64,000 bases of DNA from Parcubacteria group bacterium (GTDB lineage: Bacteria > Patescibacteriota > Minisyncoccia > Moranbacterales > UBA2206): contig JBAYWF010000001.1 in assembly GCA_041674205.1 (NCBI GenBank), forward strand, positions 37,449-101,448. The letters are read 5' to 3'. Positions 11,110 through 64,000 of the stretch are shown here, in pieces. A program made the translations under genes and the position numbers. The notes under the pieces were generated by a model. It made no database searches, was not told the DNA's origin, and saw only the letters and a program-made list of their open reading frames with translations. Position 1 is the stretch's first letter; each line of letters starts with the position of its first letter.

Positions 11110-11249
11110 ATCAAATACTGACCACCTCATGTCATAAAACGGAGTCGTAATATCACGGGGTAGCTCCGTGACGCCATTTCAGAGCGGACACCTGAAAACT
11201 TGCGTTGGAGGCCGATAAGACGCGAGATAATGTTTCGGCGAGGAGGAAG

Positions 11250-12181: not shown

Positions 12182-14761
12182 TCAGGGAATTGAAACGATG
12201 TTGGTATGGATCGTGATGTTCGTACTTTTTGACTTGTCGTTTTTATCGACGGCGACAGCCTTGATTTCCAGGTCGGACGTCTTTTTGTCATCAGGTATGG
12301 AATAAGTGTAGCTTAAAGATGAGTCATCCTTGGAAGATACTTCGTCACCGTCGATATAGAGGGTTATCTTGTCTATATCGAAGGCGGAGGAAGCTGCGGC
12401 TTTGATCGTGACAGTGTTGGAAGTTACGGTTGCTCCGTTGGAGGGAGAGGTTATTTTTACTTTCGGAGTGATGTCGGAAAAATCATCAGATTCGCATTTT
12501 TTGGTAGGCGCGGGGTCATTGGAAAGGTCCTTGTCTTTCTCGGCATATTTTTGGACGGCCTTTTCCCAATTTTTAAATTGCGGATCGTCTTCCGGGTCTT
12601 TAGGGTAGTCTCCGCGCGGGTCATCCTTTTTGACATACCACAGGATGGAATGGGCAGAAAAGAATTTTTTCTTAGTTTTAAGACTGTCCGGGCAAGCGTC
12701 GGTGGCTAGGCAGTAATCATCGTTTTTATCAGGTATTTCGCAGACCTCGATTTTTTCTTCCGGGTCGAGTTTGCCGTTCAAGATCGGCTTGCCGGCATCT
12801 TCCGGTTCGTATTTCGGAAATTGCTCCACATTGTAGTTTTTTAAGGCGCCATCCATAAATTTCCGCCAAATCGGAGCGGCTACGAAAATTCCATCCGCAC
12901 CTTTGGCCATCGTGGAATTGTCGTTGTTGCCCGCCCAAACACCGACTACGAGAGACGGGGTATATCCCATCGCCCAACCGTCACGCCATTCATTGGTAGT
13001 TCCGGTTTTGGCGGCTACGGATCGGTCGGTGAAATTGAAGGGATTGTTGGTTCCAAAAACCGGAGCGCGCAATGAGTTGGTGGACATCACGTAATCAAGC
13101 ATAGACACATATTTTTCGTCGATGACTCTTTGGCCCGGGTCATTTTGGTATTCCTCGAGGATTTTTCCGGAGGAATCGGTTATTTTCAGGATGGCGGTCT
13201 TGTCATGGTGGATTCCTCCGGTTGCCAGGGAACCATAGGCATTCGTATGGTCAAGTAGTGTCACTTCGCCGCCGCCCAATACCAATGAGAGTCCATAATC
13301 GAAAGACTTGTCCAGAGTGGTTATGCCAAGAGCCTTGGCGGTCGTGATGGAATCCTGGACTCCGGCTAGATAGAGCGTTTGGACAGCGGGAACGTTCAGT
13401 GACATCGCCAGCGCATCTTTCATTTGGAGTAGCCCGTGGTTTTTCCCGTCATAGTTTTTCGGATTATAGCTTTTTCCCGAATCGGTTGAAAAATCGGTGT
13501 CTACGTCCCACATCTGGGTTTCTGGAGTGTAGCCTTTTTTGAAAGCTGTCAGATAGACATATGGCTTGAAAGATGATCCAGGCTGGCGGTTCCGGATAGT
13601 GACATTGACTTGGCCGTCGATGGATTTGTCGAAATAATCCTTGCTGCCTACCATCGCCAATATTTGTCCGGTACGCGGATCCATCGCGACCATCGCGGCA
13701 TTCTCAGCTCCGTATTTTGCCGTATTGGACGTCGCGCCTTCTTTGACCGCTTGTTCGGCTAATTGTTGTTTATCCCAATCGAGAGTGGTGTAAACCTTGA
13801 GGCCACCCTGTTCCAATGCTTGCTGGCCATAGGTTTTTTCCAGATATTCCTTGATGTACATCACGAAGTGCGGTGCGGAAATATTTTCCGAAGAGGGCCG
13901 TATTTTTGCCAGGATGTCGACCTCTTTGGCCGCCGCGGCTTGTTCCTGGGAAATATAGCCTAATTTTTCCATTTGGGTCAGCGCATACACCTGTCTGCCT
14001 CGCAAGGCGTCGGAGTTATTCCCATAAGGGGAATAGTAAGAGGGTGCTTGGGGCAGGGCAGCTAAAAGGGCCGCTTCGTCAAGGGAAAGTTCTGAGGCGT
14101 GTTTGCCGAAAAAAGTTTGCGCGGCCGCTTCGATGCCATAGGCGTTGGAGCCGTAGGGGATTTCATTGAGGTACATTGCTAATATTTCATCCTTGGAAAA
14201 TTTAAGCTCTATTTCGATAGCCAGAATCAGTTCCTTGATCTTGCGGGAAAGCGATCTTTCGTCGGTAAGGATGGAATTTTTAACGAATTGCTGGGTAATC
14301 GTCGAGCCGCCCCGTCCGCCTCCTCGGCGCAAGACGTTTGAAATTACGGCATTGGCCAAACCGCGCACATCAAATCCAGGATGGTGGTAGAAGTTCTGGT
14401 CTTCCAGGGAGATGGTGGCATATTTGATGGCGTCCGGCATATCCGTGAATTGGATTTGCGTTCTCTTTTCTTCGCCGTGGATGTCATAGAGCAGGTGGTC
14501 GCCGGTGCGGTCGTAAATCTTGGTTGATTCCGTCACGACCCGTTTGCTGATTCCGTTGGCACTGGGCAAGTCTTTGGCGAAATAGGCGAAAATGCCTAAA
14601 ACCAGAAGCGCGGAAAAGCCCGCCGCATAGGCGCTGATTTTGCCAGCCATCCGCCAGCGGTTTTTGCTGGAGGCATATTTGAAATTTCTTAGGGGGGAGA
14701 ATATCTTGTCCATAAAATATGATATTTTAAAATATGGCCAAATAAGGCCTTTTGCAACCAT
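12182..14761 (-). CDS. Bifunctional class A penicillin-binding protein (PBP1A; transglycosylase + transpeptidase) with C-terminal Ig-like extension
   Basis: GT51 motif EDQNFYHHPGFDVRG, transpeptidase SSFKP and KTGT motifs, N-terminal TM anchor. True start may be the internal ATG (MDKIFSPL, about 14713). Confidence 0.9.
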   Translation of the reverse strand: MVAKGLIWPYFKISYFMDKIFSPLRNFKYASSKNRWRMAGKISAYAAGFSALLVLGIFAYFAKDLPSANGISKRVVTESTKIYDRTGDHLLYDIHGEEKRTQIQFTDMPDAIKYATISLEDQNFYHHPGFDVRGLANAVISNVLRRGGGRGGSTITQQFVKNSILTDERSLSRKIKELILAIEIELKFSKDEILAMYLNEIPYGSNAYGIEAAAQTFFGKHASELSLDEAALLAALPQAPSYYSPYGNNSDALRGRQVYALTQMEKLGYISQEQAAAAKEVDILAKIRPSSENISAPHFVMYIKEYLEKTYGQQALEQGGLKVYTTLDWDKQQLAEQAVKEGATSNTAKYGAENAAMVAMDPRTGQILAMVGSKDYFDKSIDGQVNVTIRNRQPGSSFKPYVYLTAFKKGYTPETQMWDVDTDFSTDSGKSYNPKNYDGKNHGLLQMKDALAMSLNVPAVQTLYLAGVQDSITTAKALGITTLDKSFDYGLSLVLGGGEVTLLDHTNAYGSLATGGIHHDKTAILKITDSSGKILEEYQNDPGQRVIDEKYVSMLDYVMSTNSLRAPVFGTNNPFNFTDRSVAAKTGTTNEWRDGWAMGYTPSLVVGVWAGNNDNSTMAKGADGIFVAAPIWRKFMDGALKNYNVEQFPKYEPEDAGKPILNGKLDPEEKIEVCEIPDKNDDYCLATDACPDSLKTKKKFFSAHSILWYVKKDDPRGDYPKDPEDDPQFKNWEKAVQKYAEKDKDLSNDPAPTKKCESDDFSDITPKVKITSPSNGATVTSNTVTIKAAASSAFDIDKITLYIDGDEVSSKDDSSLSYTYSIPDDKKTSDLEIKAVAVDKNDKSKSTNITIHTNIVSIP

Positions 14762-14992
14762 AAGCTGGATGCTGTGAAGTCAGTTAGTATTCTACGATAA
14801 TTCCGGGTTTTTATCAAGCCCGCCGGCAGGGATGTTTTCTGGTGTCTGAATCTTGCAGGCATCTTTGATTTTATCCAAAAACTTCAAAGTTTATGAGGTT
14901 CAGACTAAAATCAAGCAATTAAAGCGATATATTTTTCCAATAAAAAATGAGCTTGTGAAAGCCCATTGATATTGCGGATAAAAAAACTAACA

Positions 14993-60317: not shown

Positions 60318-61769
60318 ATGGCCAATAAGAAAAACAGCAAAAAACTCGTGACTAGTAAAATAAAAAAAATGACGGTCAAGAAAACCGCCAAGTCCGTCCA
60401 TCCGGTAAAAAATGCCAAATCAGTCCGTGTGGTAAAAACTTCGTCCAAAAAACAAACCGCCAATCATAAGCCGGTCCGGATTAAAAAAGCTGTTAAGAAA
60501 TCCGTCAAAAAGGAAGTGAAACCGGTGCATATCAAAAAGCCGGCCGCGGCCAAAAAAACCGTCAGCTCCGCCACGCCGGTCCATTCGGGAAAAGCCAAAG
60601 TCGGGATGAGCCGTGCCGAGAAAAAAATCAGCCAGGGCGGTAAAGTCGTGCCGTTCAAGCCGAAAGAAGAAAAGAAAAAAAGCGTCGTCGAGGAATTGGT
60701 TTATCGGGGCAAGCAAAGGGGATTCATAACTGAAGACGAGATTTTGCATGCTTTCCCGGACGCGGAAAAAAATATCGAAGAGCTGGGAAGTTTGTATGAA
60801 AAATTGGAGGAAGTCGGCGTGCGGGTCTTGGGATCGGACGATATGCTGAAGATGGAAACCGACAAGATCGTCGAGGATATTGAAGAAGAAAAGGCTGGCA
60901 AGAAAAAGAAGCGGAGGGAAATCGACGTGCCGGAGGAGGCCTCTTCCGATTTGGTGCAGATGTATCTGCGCGAAATCGGCCGGGTGGAACTTTTGAAGTC
61001 GGAAGAAGAAATCGCCCTGGCCAAGAGGATCGAAAAAGGCGACCCGGTAGCCAAACAGAAATTGACCGAAGCCAACTTGCGTCTGGTGGTGAGCATCGCC
61101 AAGAAATATGTCGGCCGCTCGCACAACCTTTCCCTGCTCGATCTGATCCAGGAAGGCAATATCGGTTTGTTCCGCGCCGTGGAGAAATTTGACTATACCA
61201 AGGGTTATAAGTTTTCCACCTACGCGACCTGGTGGATCCGCCAGGCTATCACGCGGGCTTTGGCCGACCAGTCCCGCACGATCCGCATCCCGGTGCATAT
61301 GGTGGAAACGATCAATAAATATACGCAAATAACCCGGCGGCTGGTCCAGGATCTGGGACGCGAGCCGTTGCCGGAAGAGGTGGCGGTGGAAATGGGCATC
61401 GAAGTGGACAAAATCCGCCACATTATGAAAATCTCGCAGGAAACGGTGTCGCTGGAAACTTCGGTCGGCGACAGCGATGACGACAGCGTGCTGGGGGATT
61501 TCATCGAAGATACGGAAACGGTGATGCCGCACCATGTCGCTTCGCGGAAACTTCTGCGCGACCACGTGACGGAAATCCTGGATTCCTTGACGCCGCGCGA
61601 ACAGAAAATCTTGAAAATCCGGTTCGGCTTGGAAGACGGGGTGGTGCACACATTGGAAGAAGTGGGGCAGGAATTTGGTGTGACGCGCGAGCGTATCCGC
61701 CAGATCGAATCGAAAGCCTTGGAAAAAATCCGGGAGCACAAAGGTGTCAAAAAACTGAAGGATTATTAA
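60318..61769 (+). CDS. rpoD: RNA polymerase sigma-70 factor RpoD with about 120-aa lysine/alanine-rich histone-H1-like N-terminal extension
   Basis: Regions 1.2-4 ([56 protein letters not shown]). N-terminal KKxVKK repeats. Confidence 0.9.
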
Positions 61770-61785
61770 AATCCCTTAAATATAC

Positions 61786-61817
61786 TAAAAAAGCCCTGAT
61801 TCGCAGGGCTTTTTTCG
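61786..61817 (+). terminator. Rho-independent terminator after rpoD
   Basis: AGCCCTG-ATTCG-CAGGGCT followed by a T6 run. Confidence 0.75.
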
Positions 61818-61903
61818 TGCCTGCGAGCCCTTGCCAGTCGAAAAAATACTTGCTATACTGGTTTTGTTGCTTGTTTCAGGCAATTTTTAAAAACTGAATA
61901 CAT

Positions 61904-61975
61904 TCCGCGATAGCTCAATGGTAGAGCAGTTGACTGTTAATCAATTGGTTCCAGGTTCGAATCCTGGTCGCGGAG
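61904..61975 (+). tRNA. tRNA-Asn (anticodon GTT)
   Basis: Acceptor TCCGCGA/TCGCGGA, D-arm GCTC-AATGGTA-GAGC, anticodon loop CTGTTAA, T-arm CCAGG-TTCGAAT-CCTGG, discriminator G. Confidence 0.85.
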
Positions 61976-61986
61976 CTTTGACATAA

Positions 61987-62013
61987 AACCACCTTCACAA
62001 TAGGTGGTTTTTG
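61987..62013 (+). terminator. Terminator hairpin after tRNA-Asn
   Basis: ACCACCT-TCACAAT-AGGTGGT followed by TTTTT. Confidence 0.6.
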
Positions 62014-62036
62014 CTTTATATAAGCACAATTCAGGA

Positions 62037-62139
62037 GGTTCGAACCTACTGAAAAATGGGGTAGACCCGAATTGGAATGATAACGACTCAAAAGTGCATT
62101 TACCCCTGTGTTTATGGGCTTTGAGAGAGGTTCGAACCT
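62037..62139. repeat. Two copies of GAGGTTCGAACCTA with a perfect 10-bp palindrome GGTTCGAACC, 92 nt apart, between tRNA-Asn and the serine recombinase
   Basis: Copies at 62033-62047 and 62125-62139. Candidate recombinase-site-like palindromes or tRNA-fragment relics. Confidence 0.5.
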
Positions 62140-62157
62140 AAATCTTGAAAGACCAAT

Positions 62158-62197
62158 AAAAAAACTCCTCGCTGTTTTTTTGCGAGGAGCTATTTTA
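62158..62197. terminator. Bidirectional terminator at the 3-prime end of the recombinase gene
   Basis: ACTCCTCGC-TGTTTTTTT-GCGAGGAG with A/T runs on both sides. Confidence 0.6.
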
Positions 62198-63854
62198 TTT
62201 TGGCTAGTTCTTTTAGTCCTGCTTGAAGTTTCGGAGAAGTGGAGTATGCAATCTCTAATTTTTTCTTATCCGGCTTCAAGGGTTCCATTTTCTTGTAAAT
62301 CGCGCTAGATACCTCGGCTACTTTTTTGATGCGTAGTATTGGGTTTTCGGTTCCGATTGTGAATTGGCTATTCTTCAGTATCAGATCTGTTCCTAAACTT
62401 GCGACTACTTGCTTTTTATTTCGCAGGTCGCCACCCTTAAATCTTTTGCAAATCTCCTCGGCAACATTTAGTGTTTTTTCTAACTTTTCCAGCCAAGTTT
62501 CTTGAGGAGTTTTTTCACTAGTTAAGGCTCTAGTCAGGAGTTCTTGTTCTTTGTGTAGTTCTGCCTGCTTAAAGCTGAAATCTGCTTCAGAAAGCTCGCC
62601 GTTGAGCTTCATGTCTATAAGTCGGCTAAGCTTCTTCTTGCTGGACTCAAGGGCTCTGCTTTGGCCTTCACGAATCCTATTGTCAGATTCGAGTTCCTCA
62701 GAGTAGTTTTGTCTGAGATGGTGGATTGCGAAATCCTTGAACCCAGGTGGTATATCGATTGTTTTCATAAGTTGCTGAATTTGGTCTTCTAGCACCTTCT
62801 CTTCTACATTTTTTCTTTCTGGGCAATTCGGATCTCTTCTTTTTGTACAATGATAGTAGATGTAATGGTGTTTATTACCATTTAAATTCTTTTTAGTTTT
62901 ATTTTCAGCTGTGATCATTGCGCCACAATTTGCACATTGTATTATTCCGGTATAGGCGAAGGTGTAACTCTTTGGGCGAGTGGTTCCTTTTTTGCTCAGC
63001 AAGTCTTGAATTTTTTCAAAATCTTCTCGACTGATCATGGCTTCATGTTTGCCTTGAATCCAATTGCTGCTACCCTTAGGAAATTCAAACCATCCGTAGT
63101 AAAAGGGGTTGTGAAGCATTGCATACCAGGAAGCAATCGCAACTTTGCCACCATTTTTATTCGTGAGCCCCCATTCTTTTGTCGCTAGGTCGTAAGTTTC
63201 TTTGACTGAGTATTTTCCTGATAAAACCATCTGCCACATTTTTTTGACCAGGTCGAAGCTTGCCGGATCGTTCATTATCTCTTTTTCTCCTTTGCGCTTC
63301 ATTGGGTTATATGTGTAGCCTAAGGCGCCCATATTAGGGCACCATCCCATCTGAGCTTTTTGTGCTAAGCCTCTTTTTACATTGACACCCTTGTGGTCAT
63401 TCTCAAGTTTAGCTTGGCTAAAAAAGAGGTTGAGCATGAACTTATCATTAGGTGTGTTTCTGAATATTTGCCCAGGCGTTGCAATCTCTTGAAGCTTCCC
63501 GGAGTCCACAAGATGTATTATTCTTCCTGAGTCTATGGAATTTCTTGATAATCGATCAATATTCCACACGAGAAGTTTCTGAATTCGTCCGCTTTCTATA
63601 TCAAGAAGAATCTGATTAAATATGGGACGCCCTTCCGGATTTTTGGCAGAGTGTGATTCCTCTCTAATTTCTCCAATTTCAAATCCACTCCTATCCGCTA
63701 CCGCCTTCATTTCACGGATTTGAGATTCAATAGAAAGAGCCTGCCTCTCCGCGCTCTCACTTGATTTGCGTGCATAAAGCAGATAGTTATTCAATTGTGC
63801 AATTTTTTGATTCATTTCTTTTTGTTTGGGTTTTGTAACAACACAATACCCCAA
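62190..63854 (-). CDS. Large serine recombinase (phage-integrase-type resolvase/invertase N-domain + recombinase domain + zinc ribbon + coiled coil)
   Basis: Catalytic region YARKSSESAERQALSIESQ with LLVWNIDRLSRN, recombinase domain, Cys cluster CANCGAMITA...YYHCTKRRDPNCPE, 554 aa. Confidence 0.85.
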   Translation of the reverse strand: MGYCVVTKPKQKEMNQKIAQLNNYLLYARKSSESAERQALSIESQIREMKAVADRSGFEIGEIREESHSAKNPEGRPIFNQILLDIESGRIQKLLVWNIDRLSRNSIDSGRIIHLVDSGKLQEIATPGQIFRNTPNDKFMLNLFFSQAKLENDHKGVNVKRGLAQKAQMGWCPNMGALGYTYNPMKRKGEKEIMNDPASFDLVKKMWQMVLSGKYSVKETYDLATKEWGLTNKNGGKVAIASWYAMLHNPFYYGWFEFPKGSSNWIQGKHEAMISREDFEKIQDLLSKKGTTRPKSYTFAYTGIIQCANCGAMITAENKTKKNLNGNKHHYIYYHCTKRRDPNCPERKNVEEKVLEDQIQQLMKTIDIPPGFKDFAIHHLRQNYSEELESDNRIREGQSRALESSKKKLSRLIDMKLNGELSEADFSFKQAELHKEQELLTRALTSEKTPQETWLEKLEKTLNVAEEICKRFKGGDLRNKKQVVASLGTDLILKNSQFTIGTENPILRIKKVAEVSSAIYKKMEPLKPDKKKLEIAYSTSPKLQAGLKELAKIK

Positions 63855-63867
63855 ACGCTAATAATAG

Positions 63868-64000
63868 CTAGTGCCTAATTTTGTCGAGCCCTCGATCTCT
63901 ACGAGCCTTTGCAATATCGGCACTCAAGTTGGCGATATTGTAGATGGTCCCTATATTTATGCTAGCGTCTGGCTTATCTTTTGGATCATAATATCCCGCC
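63868..64000 (-). CDS. 3-prime end of an unknown gene continuing beyond the window
   Basis: Own translation of the minus strand gives an open frame ...DPKDKPDASINIGTIYNIANLSADIAKARRDRGLDKIRH-stop, ending 13 nt before the recombinase start. Too short for the ORF track. Confidence 0.25.
   Translation of the reverse strand, partial: AGYYDPKDKPDASINIGTIYNIANLSADIAKARRDRGLDKIRH

Follow-up and report, generated by a model that had tools for sequence, protein, structure and literature searches.

The 64-kb window (the whole stretch of DNA analysed) is 100% identical to ENA contig k141_1326113, from a Moraniibacteriota (CPR) bacterium. Near its end, a tRNA-Asn(GTT) gene lies on the plus strand at 61904-61976 (ARAGORN; Rfam RF00005, 75.3 bits), and it was the sole match in an Rfam scan of 61700-64000. 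It is preceded by a promoter-like site at 61831-61859 on the same strand (TTGCCA-17-TATACT, TG-extended), a consensus match only, at 10 of 12 positions. The T-loop DNA of the gene, GGTTCGAATCC, occupies 61954-61964 (plus strand), and an intrinsic terminator hairpin follows at 61985-62011 (plus strand), so that the order of tRNA and terminator given in a preliminary description of this DNA was correct. The two palindromic copies which that description had placed 92 nt apart were found exactly at 62035 and 62127: GAGGTTCGAACCTA occurs only twice in the window, at 62035-62048 (copy 1, tRNA-proximal, core 62037-62046) and at 62127-62140 (copy 2, recombinase-proximal, core 62129-62138), 92 nt from start to start, a count reached by none of 100 dinucleotide-preserving shuffles. 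The perfect palindrome measures 12 nt (AGGTTCGAACCT), and its central CG is itself symmetric.

Convergent with the tRNA gene is that of a large serine recombinase (LSR; 62190-63815, minus strand), which encodes 541 aa from an ATG at 63815, a product called exactly on two public contigs. The preliminary description had an LSR gene of 554 aa, which is the length of the ORF if begun at the TTG at 63854 (62190-63854); the enzyme class stands, and we refined the strand to minus and the product to 541 aa. By its N-terminal catalytic and C-terminal recombinase/zinc-ribbon domains the protein is an LSR: it matches Pfam Resolvase (PF00239, 1.4e-22, residues 26-170 of the 554-aa ORF), Recombinase (PF07508, 2.9e-10) and Zn_ribbon_recom (PF13408, 4.5e-8), PHROG integrase phrog_95 (2.7e-66) and the solved integrases of SPbeta (E 2e-15) and A118 (E 4e-8). 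It has YARKSS and DRLSRN motifs, with R88, L89, R91 and N92 invariant in a protein alignment with its relatives. Directly after its stop codon we read from the sequence a terminator hairpin with an 8-bp stem and a 9-nt loop, then a T-run (62165-62189, minus strand), which the preliminary description had overlooked and our terminator scan skipped because the loop was one base over its limit. The tail of the gene (62280-62396, minus strand) retains degenerate in-frame counterparts of both palindromes, LGTDL (62382-62396) and KMEP (62280-62291), where aligned relatives have LGSNL and RFEP encoded by GGTTCGAACC. The further gene said to run off the window is indeed there, on the minus strand (63868-64000, stop codon 63868-63870); the window holds the 3' end of what on the source contig is a 152/162-aa ORF, upstream of the LSR gene in the same operon-like run, for which Pfam, PHROG and PADLOC gave no match.

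The closest sequenced relatives, L003 (DnaG 95% aa) and L004 (74%), have the same dnaG-rpoD-tRNA-Asn locus without the LSR gene, and provided the comparison with uninserted genomes that had been proposed: both carry the tRNA, identical in sequence in the alignment, and neither carries the DNA that follows it in the window. Homology with them ends ~4 nt past the tRNA, at ~61980 (blastn end point, L001rc 9791, equivalent to window 61980), and we place the junction (attL) at 61971-61980, where a CGGAGC core is common to the tRNA end and the far-end arm described below. The tRNA terminator hairpin is absent from L003 and L004 in the window's form, and many of the family junctions displayed have a hairpin of different sequence and a T-run where it sits; judging from these alignments, it is probably the element side of the junction that provides the hairpin.

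DNA beyond position 64000 was followed on the source contig, which was extended via a 666-aa protein and then a Fic protein. It forms an island with a GC content of 0.367, against 0.468 and 0.449 in the host flanks, and reaches a second junction ~17.35 kb away, where an arm ending in GGTTCGGACTTCTTCTAGACTTCGGAGC (window-equivalent 79298-79325), its last nucleotides TTCGGAGC, shares CGGAGC with the tRNA end and coincides with a GC step from 0.367 to 0.486. Three such non-tRNA arms occur, at window-equivalent 79326, 80470 and 81709, each with a hairpin terminator behind it, and none was found within the island. Past the second boundary come two short island remnants, each with a junction of this kind, and then host DNA, with a REP-like hairpin after the last junction, as after the tRNA in L003 and L004. 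Synteny with L003 restarts at an orthologous methyltransferase gene, ~22.3 kb past the tRNA here and 2.5 kb past it in L003. The empty site, the low-GC island, the second boundary and the resumed synteny all support the proposed edge of an integrated element at the tRNA. We infer that the first far-end arm belongs to the LSR element, with just 6 bp in common with the tRNA end, although it could be part of another stacked element. A 24-nt copy of the tRNA 3' end was sought without gaps and was found neither upstream of the integrase, in any of the loci, nor in 20 kb of the source contig; the actual far-end arms have ~6 bp in common with the tRNA plus a shifted motif. The ends of a 6.5-kb Logan contig (L002) were also considered as element boundaries and discarded, as they fall at the tRNA flank and at a conserved structured region (window-equivalent 68403-68600). 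A second contig of the same sample breaks in that region too; it is non-coding, and neither Rfam nor an exact-pattern scan of IMG/VR gave a match to it.

Besides the LSR, the island encodes a primase-type replication protein, DUF5659, a two-methylase type II restriction system (type II REase, PADLOC 1e-117) and RmuC, TIR-like and Mrr-like (Mrr_cat) proteins. No capsid, terminase, portal, tail or lysis genes emerged when the larger proteins of the island were scanned against PHROG and Pfam, or among the precomputed Pfam hits of its called genes (hitless small ORFs could escape), and no relaxase, coupling protein or type IV secretion Pfam family was present among the called genes of the island. 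Of what had been expected beyond the window, then, the second boundary was found and phage or conjugation genes were not, and among the proteins scanned the suggestion of a prophage finds no support.

In the distant MAGs L065, L066 and L069, too, rpoD is followed by tRNA-Asn and an LSR homologue convergent with it; L062 has another homologue 5.7 kb downstream, and metagenome loci L088, L094 and L096 have the same LSR/tRNA-Asn arrangement. This recurrence in several distant Moraniibacteriota, with a divergence similar to that of DnaG, would suit a resident, vertically inherited chromosomal gene (a domesticated invertase or resolvase) beside tRNA-Asn. We regard that as extremely improbable, given that the gene is missing from the two closest relatives, that it lies in a low-GC island with defence and replication cargo bounded by repeated arm junctions, and that the family is not tied to one tRNA: 30 of the 58 homologues with enough flanking sequence abut a tRNA, of ten kinds in all, and some relatives are on IMG/VR contigs. 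Mobility of the element would be our inference from this comparison alone; no excised circle, same-population empty site or recombination directionality factor was seen.

The palindrome pair has counterparts throughout the family. A motif pair was present in 46 LSR loci (31-49% identity), with a spacing of 103 nt in 24, 101 nt in 15 and 104 nt in 3, that is, in 42 of the 46. The proximal copy is consistently ~60 nt from the tRNA end, and in the 103-nt subfamily the tRNA 3' end is 68-70 nt past the start of motif 1 whichever the tRNA; members of the 101-nt subfamily are mostly without an adjoining detected tRNA. The copies usually lie within the integrase gene, in two different reading frames that are swapped between the subfamilies, and many of these in-ORF copies have one mismatch. 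Third-codon positions are conserved at 0.85-0.99 inside the motifs but at 0.50-0.54 in flanking codons: by this measure the copies are conserved at the DNA level even where they are inside integrase coding sequence. Such a family-wide module would strengthen the regulatory-site reading of the palindromes that had been offered at the outset. In most members the integrase ORF crosses the junction, ending antisense in the tRNA (with LLRRQDSNL before the stop) or continuing through the non-tRNA arm, and the protein tail therefore depends on the integration state. Partial tRNA-Asn sequences by the integrase in four loci (L087, L182, L185 and L060) were considered as an attP-borne tRNA 3' half, with crossover in the anticodon loop, and rejected: the DNA upstream of them is a group I intron (RF00028, 92 and 79 bits), which makes them intron-containing tRNA-Asn genes missed by ARAGORN. 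Taking these comparisons together, we consider it likely that window positions 61977-64000 are the tRNA-proximal (attL) end of a ~17.35-kb integrative element, with a conserved T-loop-like palindrome module, from a CPR family of LSRs directed at tRNA 3' ends. Our literature search, of incomplete coverage and hence no proof of absence, found no tRNA-targeting serine integrase family and no such motif pair.

Spacing that is conserved across the family might also be expected if the copies acted in RNA, pairing to close a ~90-nt domain in the 3' end of the integrase mRNA or in a read-through tRNA transcript and thereby affecting stability or translation. The plus-strand fold of 62020-62160 does pair both copies (-39.9 kcal/mol, z=-3.6), but for the minus strand, which is the mRNA sense, the fold is no better than that of shuffled sequences (z=-1.4), a common motif 1 variant (GGTTCTAACC in the tRNA sense) is not compensated in motif 2, and there is no Rfam match. 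The adjoining arm moreover has the motif again, shifted in register by 5 bp, which is better suited to protein-DNA recognition, and we find a role in RNA distinctly unlikely.

The palindromes themselves mimic the tRNA T-loop in sequence. This resemblance, by which the T-loop could serve as an attB core, and the presence of short perfect palindromes beside an LSR gene had made them candidates for the att core, with strand exchange inside GGTTCGAACC. Such exchange is very unlikely. The empty-site homology stops 57 nt before copy 1, so that the junction falls at the last tRNA nucleotides, 57-60 nt before the first palindrome. Likewise, three loci with integrases 81-90% identical (L183, L185 and L186) are alike from the tRNA end inward and have unrelated DNA outward. 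The tRNAs are intact, and exchange in the T-loop would need a matching 3' end borne by the element, which is absent from the non-tRNA arms; a symmetric central CG would, in addition, give no polarity. On these alignments the palindromes are probably not the crossover site.

The T-loop motif of tRNA arms begins 23 nt away from the junction, in the window as elsewhere; the corresponding distance for the GGTTCGAAC-like motif of non-tRNA arms is 28 nt. The proximal palindrome is 83 nt from the T-loop in the window, as in another 19 loci of the 103-nt subfamily, and the motif-to-palindrome distance in tRNA and non-tRNA arms is 83 versus 87-88 nt in this subfamily and 105 versus 110 nt in the 101-nt subfamily. 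A shift of 5 bp in the zinc-ribbon-domain motif, which is farther out in attP, distinguishes attB from attP half-sites (PMC3783163). The left arms show that shift in two subfamilies; the right (element-side) half-site lacks a T-loop-like motif at the mirror-image position, so that the reading as half-sites draws on the left arms alone. On this model, the LSR would recognise the tRNA T-loop as the outer (zinc-ribbon-domain) motif of the left half-site, and strands would be exchanged in the last ~5 nt of the tRNA, at the common GGAGC. The predicted circle junction joins GGTTCGGACTTCTTCTAGACTTCGGAGC to TTTGACATAAAACCACC, and the restored target would have the tRNA end GGTCGCGGAGC joined to ATAAAATAAAAAAAGAGTTACGC. 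The palindromes, ~60 and ~165 nt inside the element, would be extra predicted sites for the LSR or for an element-encoded dimeric regulator, and may serve to assemble or regulate the recombination complex or to control integrase expression; in the element of the window, the module would act from outside the integrase ORF, whose internal copies were presumably lost. The palindromes are, in short, probably accessory recombinase-binding or regulatory sites. A more specific proposal, which we make tentatively and hold to be doubtful, is that the GGTTCGAACC palindromes and the T-loop-like arm motif constitute three phased accessory integrase sites, resembling arm sites or res, on which a higher-order complex would form for direction or autoregulation. 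The family would then be specialised on the universal tRNA T-loop and therefore able to hop between tRNA species.

The module in the window is atypical in its 92-nt rather than 103-nt spacing and in lying outside the LSR ORF. An origin as a duplicate of the LSR gene's own 3' end was dismissed, there being no detectable similarity (score 18, under the shuffle mean of 20). The module is similar, though, to the coding tails found in other members (between the motifs, z=4.4 for L096; in the spacer, z=3-4), and it could therefore be the leftover of an earlier element, namely the final ~170 nt of an integrase gene from a previous family member at tRNA-Asn, left after replacement or recombination. 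The degenerate in-frame counterparts retained by the present LSR gene would fit such a relic, as would the stacking of elements at this hot spot, where three more junctions lie. Both copies are nevertheless perfect 14-mers, unlike many in-ORF copies, and copy 1 keeps the canonical family distances of 70 nt to the tRNA end and 83 nt to the T-loop. The 11-nt difference in spacing is about one helical turn, so that the relative phase of the sites is kept, and between the module and the present integrase gene there is no junction of the arm type. A relic is, on this evidence, rather unlikely, and we continue to view the palindromes as probable accessory or regulatory sites of the present element.

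The mobile elements of CPR/Patescibacteria have, to our knowledge, received little characterisation, and the locus contributes one with precise boundaries that carries genes for replication and defence, together with a family that can be recognised in dozens of members. Large DNA is inserted mainly with serine integrases, which as a rule target protein-coding genes. Enzymes that recognise the near-universal tRNA T-loop and recombine at the 3' end of the tRNA would, if confirmed, find conserved and predictable sites for insertion in nearly every genome. Motif copies that stay unchanged within integrase coding sequence, in two frames, present a clear, testable case of overlapping DNA and protein constraints, and they may point to a form of control that is new for serine integrases.

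In its Resolvase-Recombinase-zinc ribbon domain order the LSR agrees with the large serine integrases of phages and ICEs (SPbeta SprA/YokA, A118, phiC31 and Bxb1), as it does in having its gene at the element end beside the att site, and, as described for A118-type sites (PMC3783163), the outer motif of the left arms lies 5 bp farther from the junction where the arm is a non-tRNA one (putatively of the element side) than where it is the host's. Unlike them, the element has two extra palindromes ~60 and 165 nt inside, beyond any simple site of 40-50 bp, and, unlike phage serine-integrase elements, no phage genes were found in its island. We know of no accessory sites as a feature of large serine integrases. 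Phased motif copies beside the crossover recall Tn3/gamma-delta res and the arm sites of lambda attP, with three sites 83-89 and 101-104 bp apart; the spacings are much larger than in res, and here the sites are predicted from sequence only. Myxophage Mx8, whose Int is a tyrosine recombinase, has its attP within the int gene, and integration alters the Int C-terminus. Serine-integrase ICEs in rumA have a direct repeat within the integrase gene (PMC4701971). Most integrase ORFs of the family span the junction as in Mx8 and the rumA ICEs; unlike in Mx8, the ORF in the window stops before it and has its own terminator, and the enzyme is a serine and not a tyrosine recombinase. Targets at tRNA 3' ends have been treated as typical of tyrosine integrases (PMC4701971). 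Our literature search found no example of a serine integrase at a tRNA 3'-end target. Genomic islands with tyrosine integrases that target tRNA genes, P4-like and others, were reportedly described by Williams in 2002. The element differs from P4-like islands in its serine recombinase and in a flanking repeat of ~6 bp (CGGAGC) instead of a 15-50-bp copy of the tRNA end. It nonetheless shares with the tyrosine-integrase islands insertion at the tRNA 3' end with the tRNA left intact, a downstream terminator that probably comes from the element, and the stacking of several islands or remnants at one tRNA.

A tRNA-Asn(GTT) gene (61904-61976, + strand; called by ARAGORN and at 75.3 bits by Rfam, which detected nothing besides the tRNA family over 61700-64000) is preceded by a promoter-like site (61831-61859) and followed by a terminator-like hairpin (61985-62011) and by GAGGTTCGAACCTA, present in exactly two copies in the 64-kb window, at 62035 and 62127, a count reached by 0 of 100 shuffles. 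The 554-aa ORF beyond them is on the minus strand, convergent with tRNA-Asn, and from the ATG at 63815 gives a 541-aa recombinase, the product as called on two public contigs. Its Resolvase, Recombinase and zinc-ribbon domains are those of large serine recombinases (LSRs); it also hits the PHROG integrase family, and the integrases of SPbeta and A118, both of solved structure, are relatives. Directly past its stop codon is a minus-strand hairpin with a T-run (62165-62189), and a second minus-strand gene (stop codon at 63868-63870) continues past the window end. The preliminary description of tRNA-Asn, its terminator, two palindromes 92 nt apart, a 554-aa LSR ORF and a run-off gene is thus confirmed, with corrections only to the strand and start codon of the LSR gene. 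Upstream, RpoD (sigma-70; 60318-61769, + strand) has a lysine-rich N-terminal extension of ~125 residues before its conserved regions, and its relatives are alignable from residue 127 onward only.

Two contigs match the window at 100% identity, one of 322 kb from an ENA metagenome (L001) and the other a Logan contig of 6.5 kb. Against species-representative genomes, the matches to the DnaG of the window were all from Patescibacteria, chiefly Candidatus Moraniibacteriota, the nearest relatives by DnaG being the loci L003 (95% aa, ~87% nt identity) and then L004 (74%). Both have dnaG, rpoD and an identical tRNA-Asn, and their nucleotide homology to the window ends at ~61980, 4 nt past tRNA-Asn. 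The edge of an integrated element had been proposed here, and comparison with these relatives without the insertion upholds it, their tRNA-Asn site being empty. Past tRNA-Asn, L003 has a REP-like hairpin, a RayT-like ORF (231 aa, 13533-14228) and small metabolic genes, none of which was found in the window; the hairpin, GTCGAGGACCGTCCTCGAC, lies at 13540-13560 in L003 and at ~13120 in L004.

The source contig was extended in three steps (window-equivalent x = 73816 - L001 = 68541 + L243 = 70604 + L244). Outward from the tRNA, the recombinase gene is followed by a 152/162-aa ORF, a 755-aa Toprim primase-like protein (PHROG DNA primase, 1e-34), a 48-aa ORF, a DUF5659 protein and a 360-aa ORF; then by a non-coding stretch of strong structure, with six small membrane-type ORFs after it; then by a 666-aa type II restriction enzyme (PADLOC, 1e-117), a Dam-class methylase and a LexA/S24-N6_N4 methylase fusion; and outermost by RmuC, a weakly TIR-like protein and an Mrr_cat-hydrolase protein. 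One island protein bears an NCBI name from a Parcubacteria-group MAG. Phage structural or conjugation proteins were found neither among the larger island proteins scanned nor among genes with a precomputed Pfam hit, which speaks against the prophage first considered. GC content is 0.367 over x 61977-79319, compared to 0.468 ahead of the tRNA and 0.449 farther downstream.

Two features of this island recur elsewhere. The GC-rich non-coding stretch of ~200 nt (L001 5216-5413, x 68403-68600, sense strand as window +) folds as a long hairpin (-84.8 kcal/mol, z=-5.9) with a terminator after it and matches no Rfam family. It is 81% identical to L065 13478-13675, though the integrases of the two elements are only 49% identical; the run of small membrane-type ORFs comes after it in both loci, and two Logan contigs from one sample end inside it. 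The methylase fusion (490 aa, L244 2448-3920, minus strand, x ~73052-74524) has a DpnIIB-like N6_N4 methylase fused to a LexA DNA-binding domain and an S24 peptidase, and adjoins the Dam-class methylase (L244 1636-2442) and the restriction enzyme (L244 1-1639). It recurs in homologues P0006, P0008, P0011, P0018 and P0022, while P0017 has an S24 peptidase domain.

The second att-like boundary anticipated beyond 64000 was found at x 79298-79325 (+), in an arm that ends in CGGAGC at the GC step. Two further arm-type sites (x 80443-80469 and 81681-81708, both +) share its design, a T-loop-like motif (GGTTCGGAC or GTTCTGAAT) with CGGAGC at the end, and a hairpin terminator with a T-run comes after each of the three; the regular expression for such sites had no other plus-strand match between the tRNA and 79298. 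The segments between the three sites contain nothing but a pair of genes of 88 and 174 aa (GC 0.49) and a Fic gene (GC 0.33). Past the third are a degenerate copy of the proximal palindrome, exactly at the canonical +61, and a REP-like hairpin (L244 ~11195-11215) similar to that after the tRNA in L003 and L004. The only orthologous gene in common with L003, for a 268-aa methyltransferase (80% nt identity), is 22.3 kb past the tRNA, versus 2.5 kb in L003. We read this as a stack at a single tRNA of the present element (~17.35 kb), to which the first arm probably belongs, two decayed remnants and the relic of a fourth. Arm-type junctions or tRNA 3' remnants in series also occur in L156 (both copies of AACGTCCTCCACTAGGCGGAGC, at the junction) and L066 (13560-13660), and stacking of family members on one tRNA appears common. 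In L062 (14644-20441), an intact tRNA-Asn and a 5.7-kb segment precede a 27-nt copy of the tRNA 3' end (T-arm and acceptor) that directly adjoins the integrase module, which suggests that a second, different element later inserted in the same tRNA; the locus also has a tRNA-like fragment on the minus strand, at ~14830-14860.

LSR homologues with 40-49% identity are convergent to tRNA-Asn after rpoD in the distant MAGs L065, L066 and L069, and another of this set is in L062, 5.7 kb downstream of tRNA-Asn; a 33% homologue in L036 adjoins tRNA-Ser. Metagenome and IMG/VR scans with a six-member alignment yielded 160 further loci. Among 71 homologues (identity at least 28%, C-terminus aligned), 58 had enough flank, and 30 of these had a convergent tRNA within 350 nt: Asn in 14, Gln in 4, His and Ser in 3 each, and Met, Ala, Leu, Tyr, Val and Trp in 1 each. 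Four more adjoin tRNA-Asn genes or gene fragments that ARAGORN misses, two of them with a confirmed group I intron (RF00028, 92 and 79 bits) in the anticodon loop (L182 11618-11859, minus strand; L060 4206-4452, plus strand). Such introns split tRNA-Asn genes in some Patescibacteria, apparently also at the ends of L087 and L185, and the 3' exon with the intron end can be mistaken for attP. Primase and DUF5659 genes accompany the integrase in several loci.

The palindrome recurs as GGTTCGAACC, twice per locus in 46 loci (nearly every copy has no more than one mismatch, with up to two accepted per pair). The two copies are 103 nt apart in 24 of these loci, 101 nt in 15 and 104 nt in 3, the 92 nt of the window being unique. 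For the 103-nt subfamily, the distance from the start of the proximal copy to the tRNA 3' end is 68-70 nt, regardless of tRNA kind, and the T-loop of the tRNA itself (GGTTCGAATCC) constitutes a third site, 83 nt away. The palindromes had been candidates for the att core, but the junction maps elsewhere. L183, L185 and L186, whose integrases have 81-90% identity, share sequence from the tRNA end inward, whereas the outer side is tRNA-Trp, tRNA-Asn or AT-rich DNA with GGAGC at its end. Taken with the empty sites of L003 and L004, this pattern puts the junction at the final nucleotides of the tRNA, 57-60 nt from the first palindrome. The T-loop motif of tRNA arms begins 23 nt from the junction and the GGTTC(G/T)AAC of non-tRNA arms 28 nt from it, a 5-bp difference seen in both subfamilies (83 versus 87-88 nt, and 105 versus 110 nt). 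In A118-type integrases, a 9-bp zinc-ribbon-domain motif is at 16-24 in attP and 11-19 in attB half-sites (Rutherford et al.; PMC3783163); by this rule, the centre of exchange would fall in the GGAGC common to tRNA-Asn and the arms, ~4-5 nt in from the tRNA end. No mirrored motif was found in the element-side half-site of the junctions compared, which counts against the half-site reading.

Both palindrome copies are within the integrase ORF in every locus but the window and L097, and encode (L)GSN(L) and R(F/L)EP, with frames swapped between the 103-nt and 101-nt subfamilies. The major base at third codon positions has a frequency of 0.85-0.99 within the motifs versus 0.50-0.54 in adjacent codons, and hence DNA or RNA is under constraint beyond that on protein alone. 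In most members (e.g. L065 10348-11946, minus strand; L062, L069, L060, L036) the ORF continues antisense into the tRNA (..LLRRQDSNL*), in others through the non-tRNA arm, so that DNA across the junction sets the C-terminal residues and stop codon. A role in RNA pairing is less likely than protein binding, since the mRNA-sense strand folds no better than shuffles and a frequent variant of the proximal copy has no compensating change. Given their fixed distances from the junction, near-identity to the left half-site motif, strong DNA-level conservation in a coding region and presence beside tRNA and non-tRNA arms alike, the palindromes are consistent with being additional predicted sites bound by the integrase or by a dimeric protein that the element encodes. 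In that role they could help to assemble or control the recombination complex, or stop transcription from crossing the 3' end of the integrase gene.

The window is atypical in that its integrase ends 54 nt short of the module, retaining in its tail only degenerate in-frame counterparts (LGTDL, 62382-62396; KMEP, 62280-62291), and its module is unrelated to that tail but related to the coding tails of other members. It is either a 3' remnant of an earlier occupant or a module separated from coding sequence. With perfect motif copies, canonical 70-nt and 83-nt distances and a spacing shift of about one helical turn, functional retention is tentatively favoured.

In domain content, the 541-aa protein is an ordinary large serine integrase. 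Islands of tyrosine integrases are alike in their tRNA 3'-end target, stacking and element-supplied terminator. Overlap of an integrase ORF with the att site has a precedent in Mx8. Serine-integrase ICEs that target rumA provide another (PMC4701971). In the literature searched, whose coverage is incomplete, we came across neither a family of serine integrases that targets tRNA genes nor phased T-loop-like sites. In principle the element is of an ordinary kind, and the interest lies in the site architecture shared across the family.
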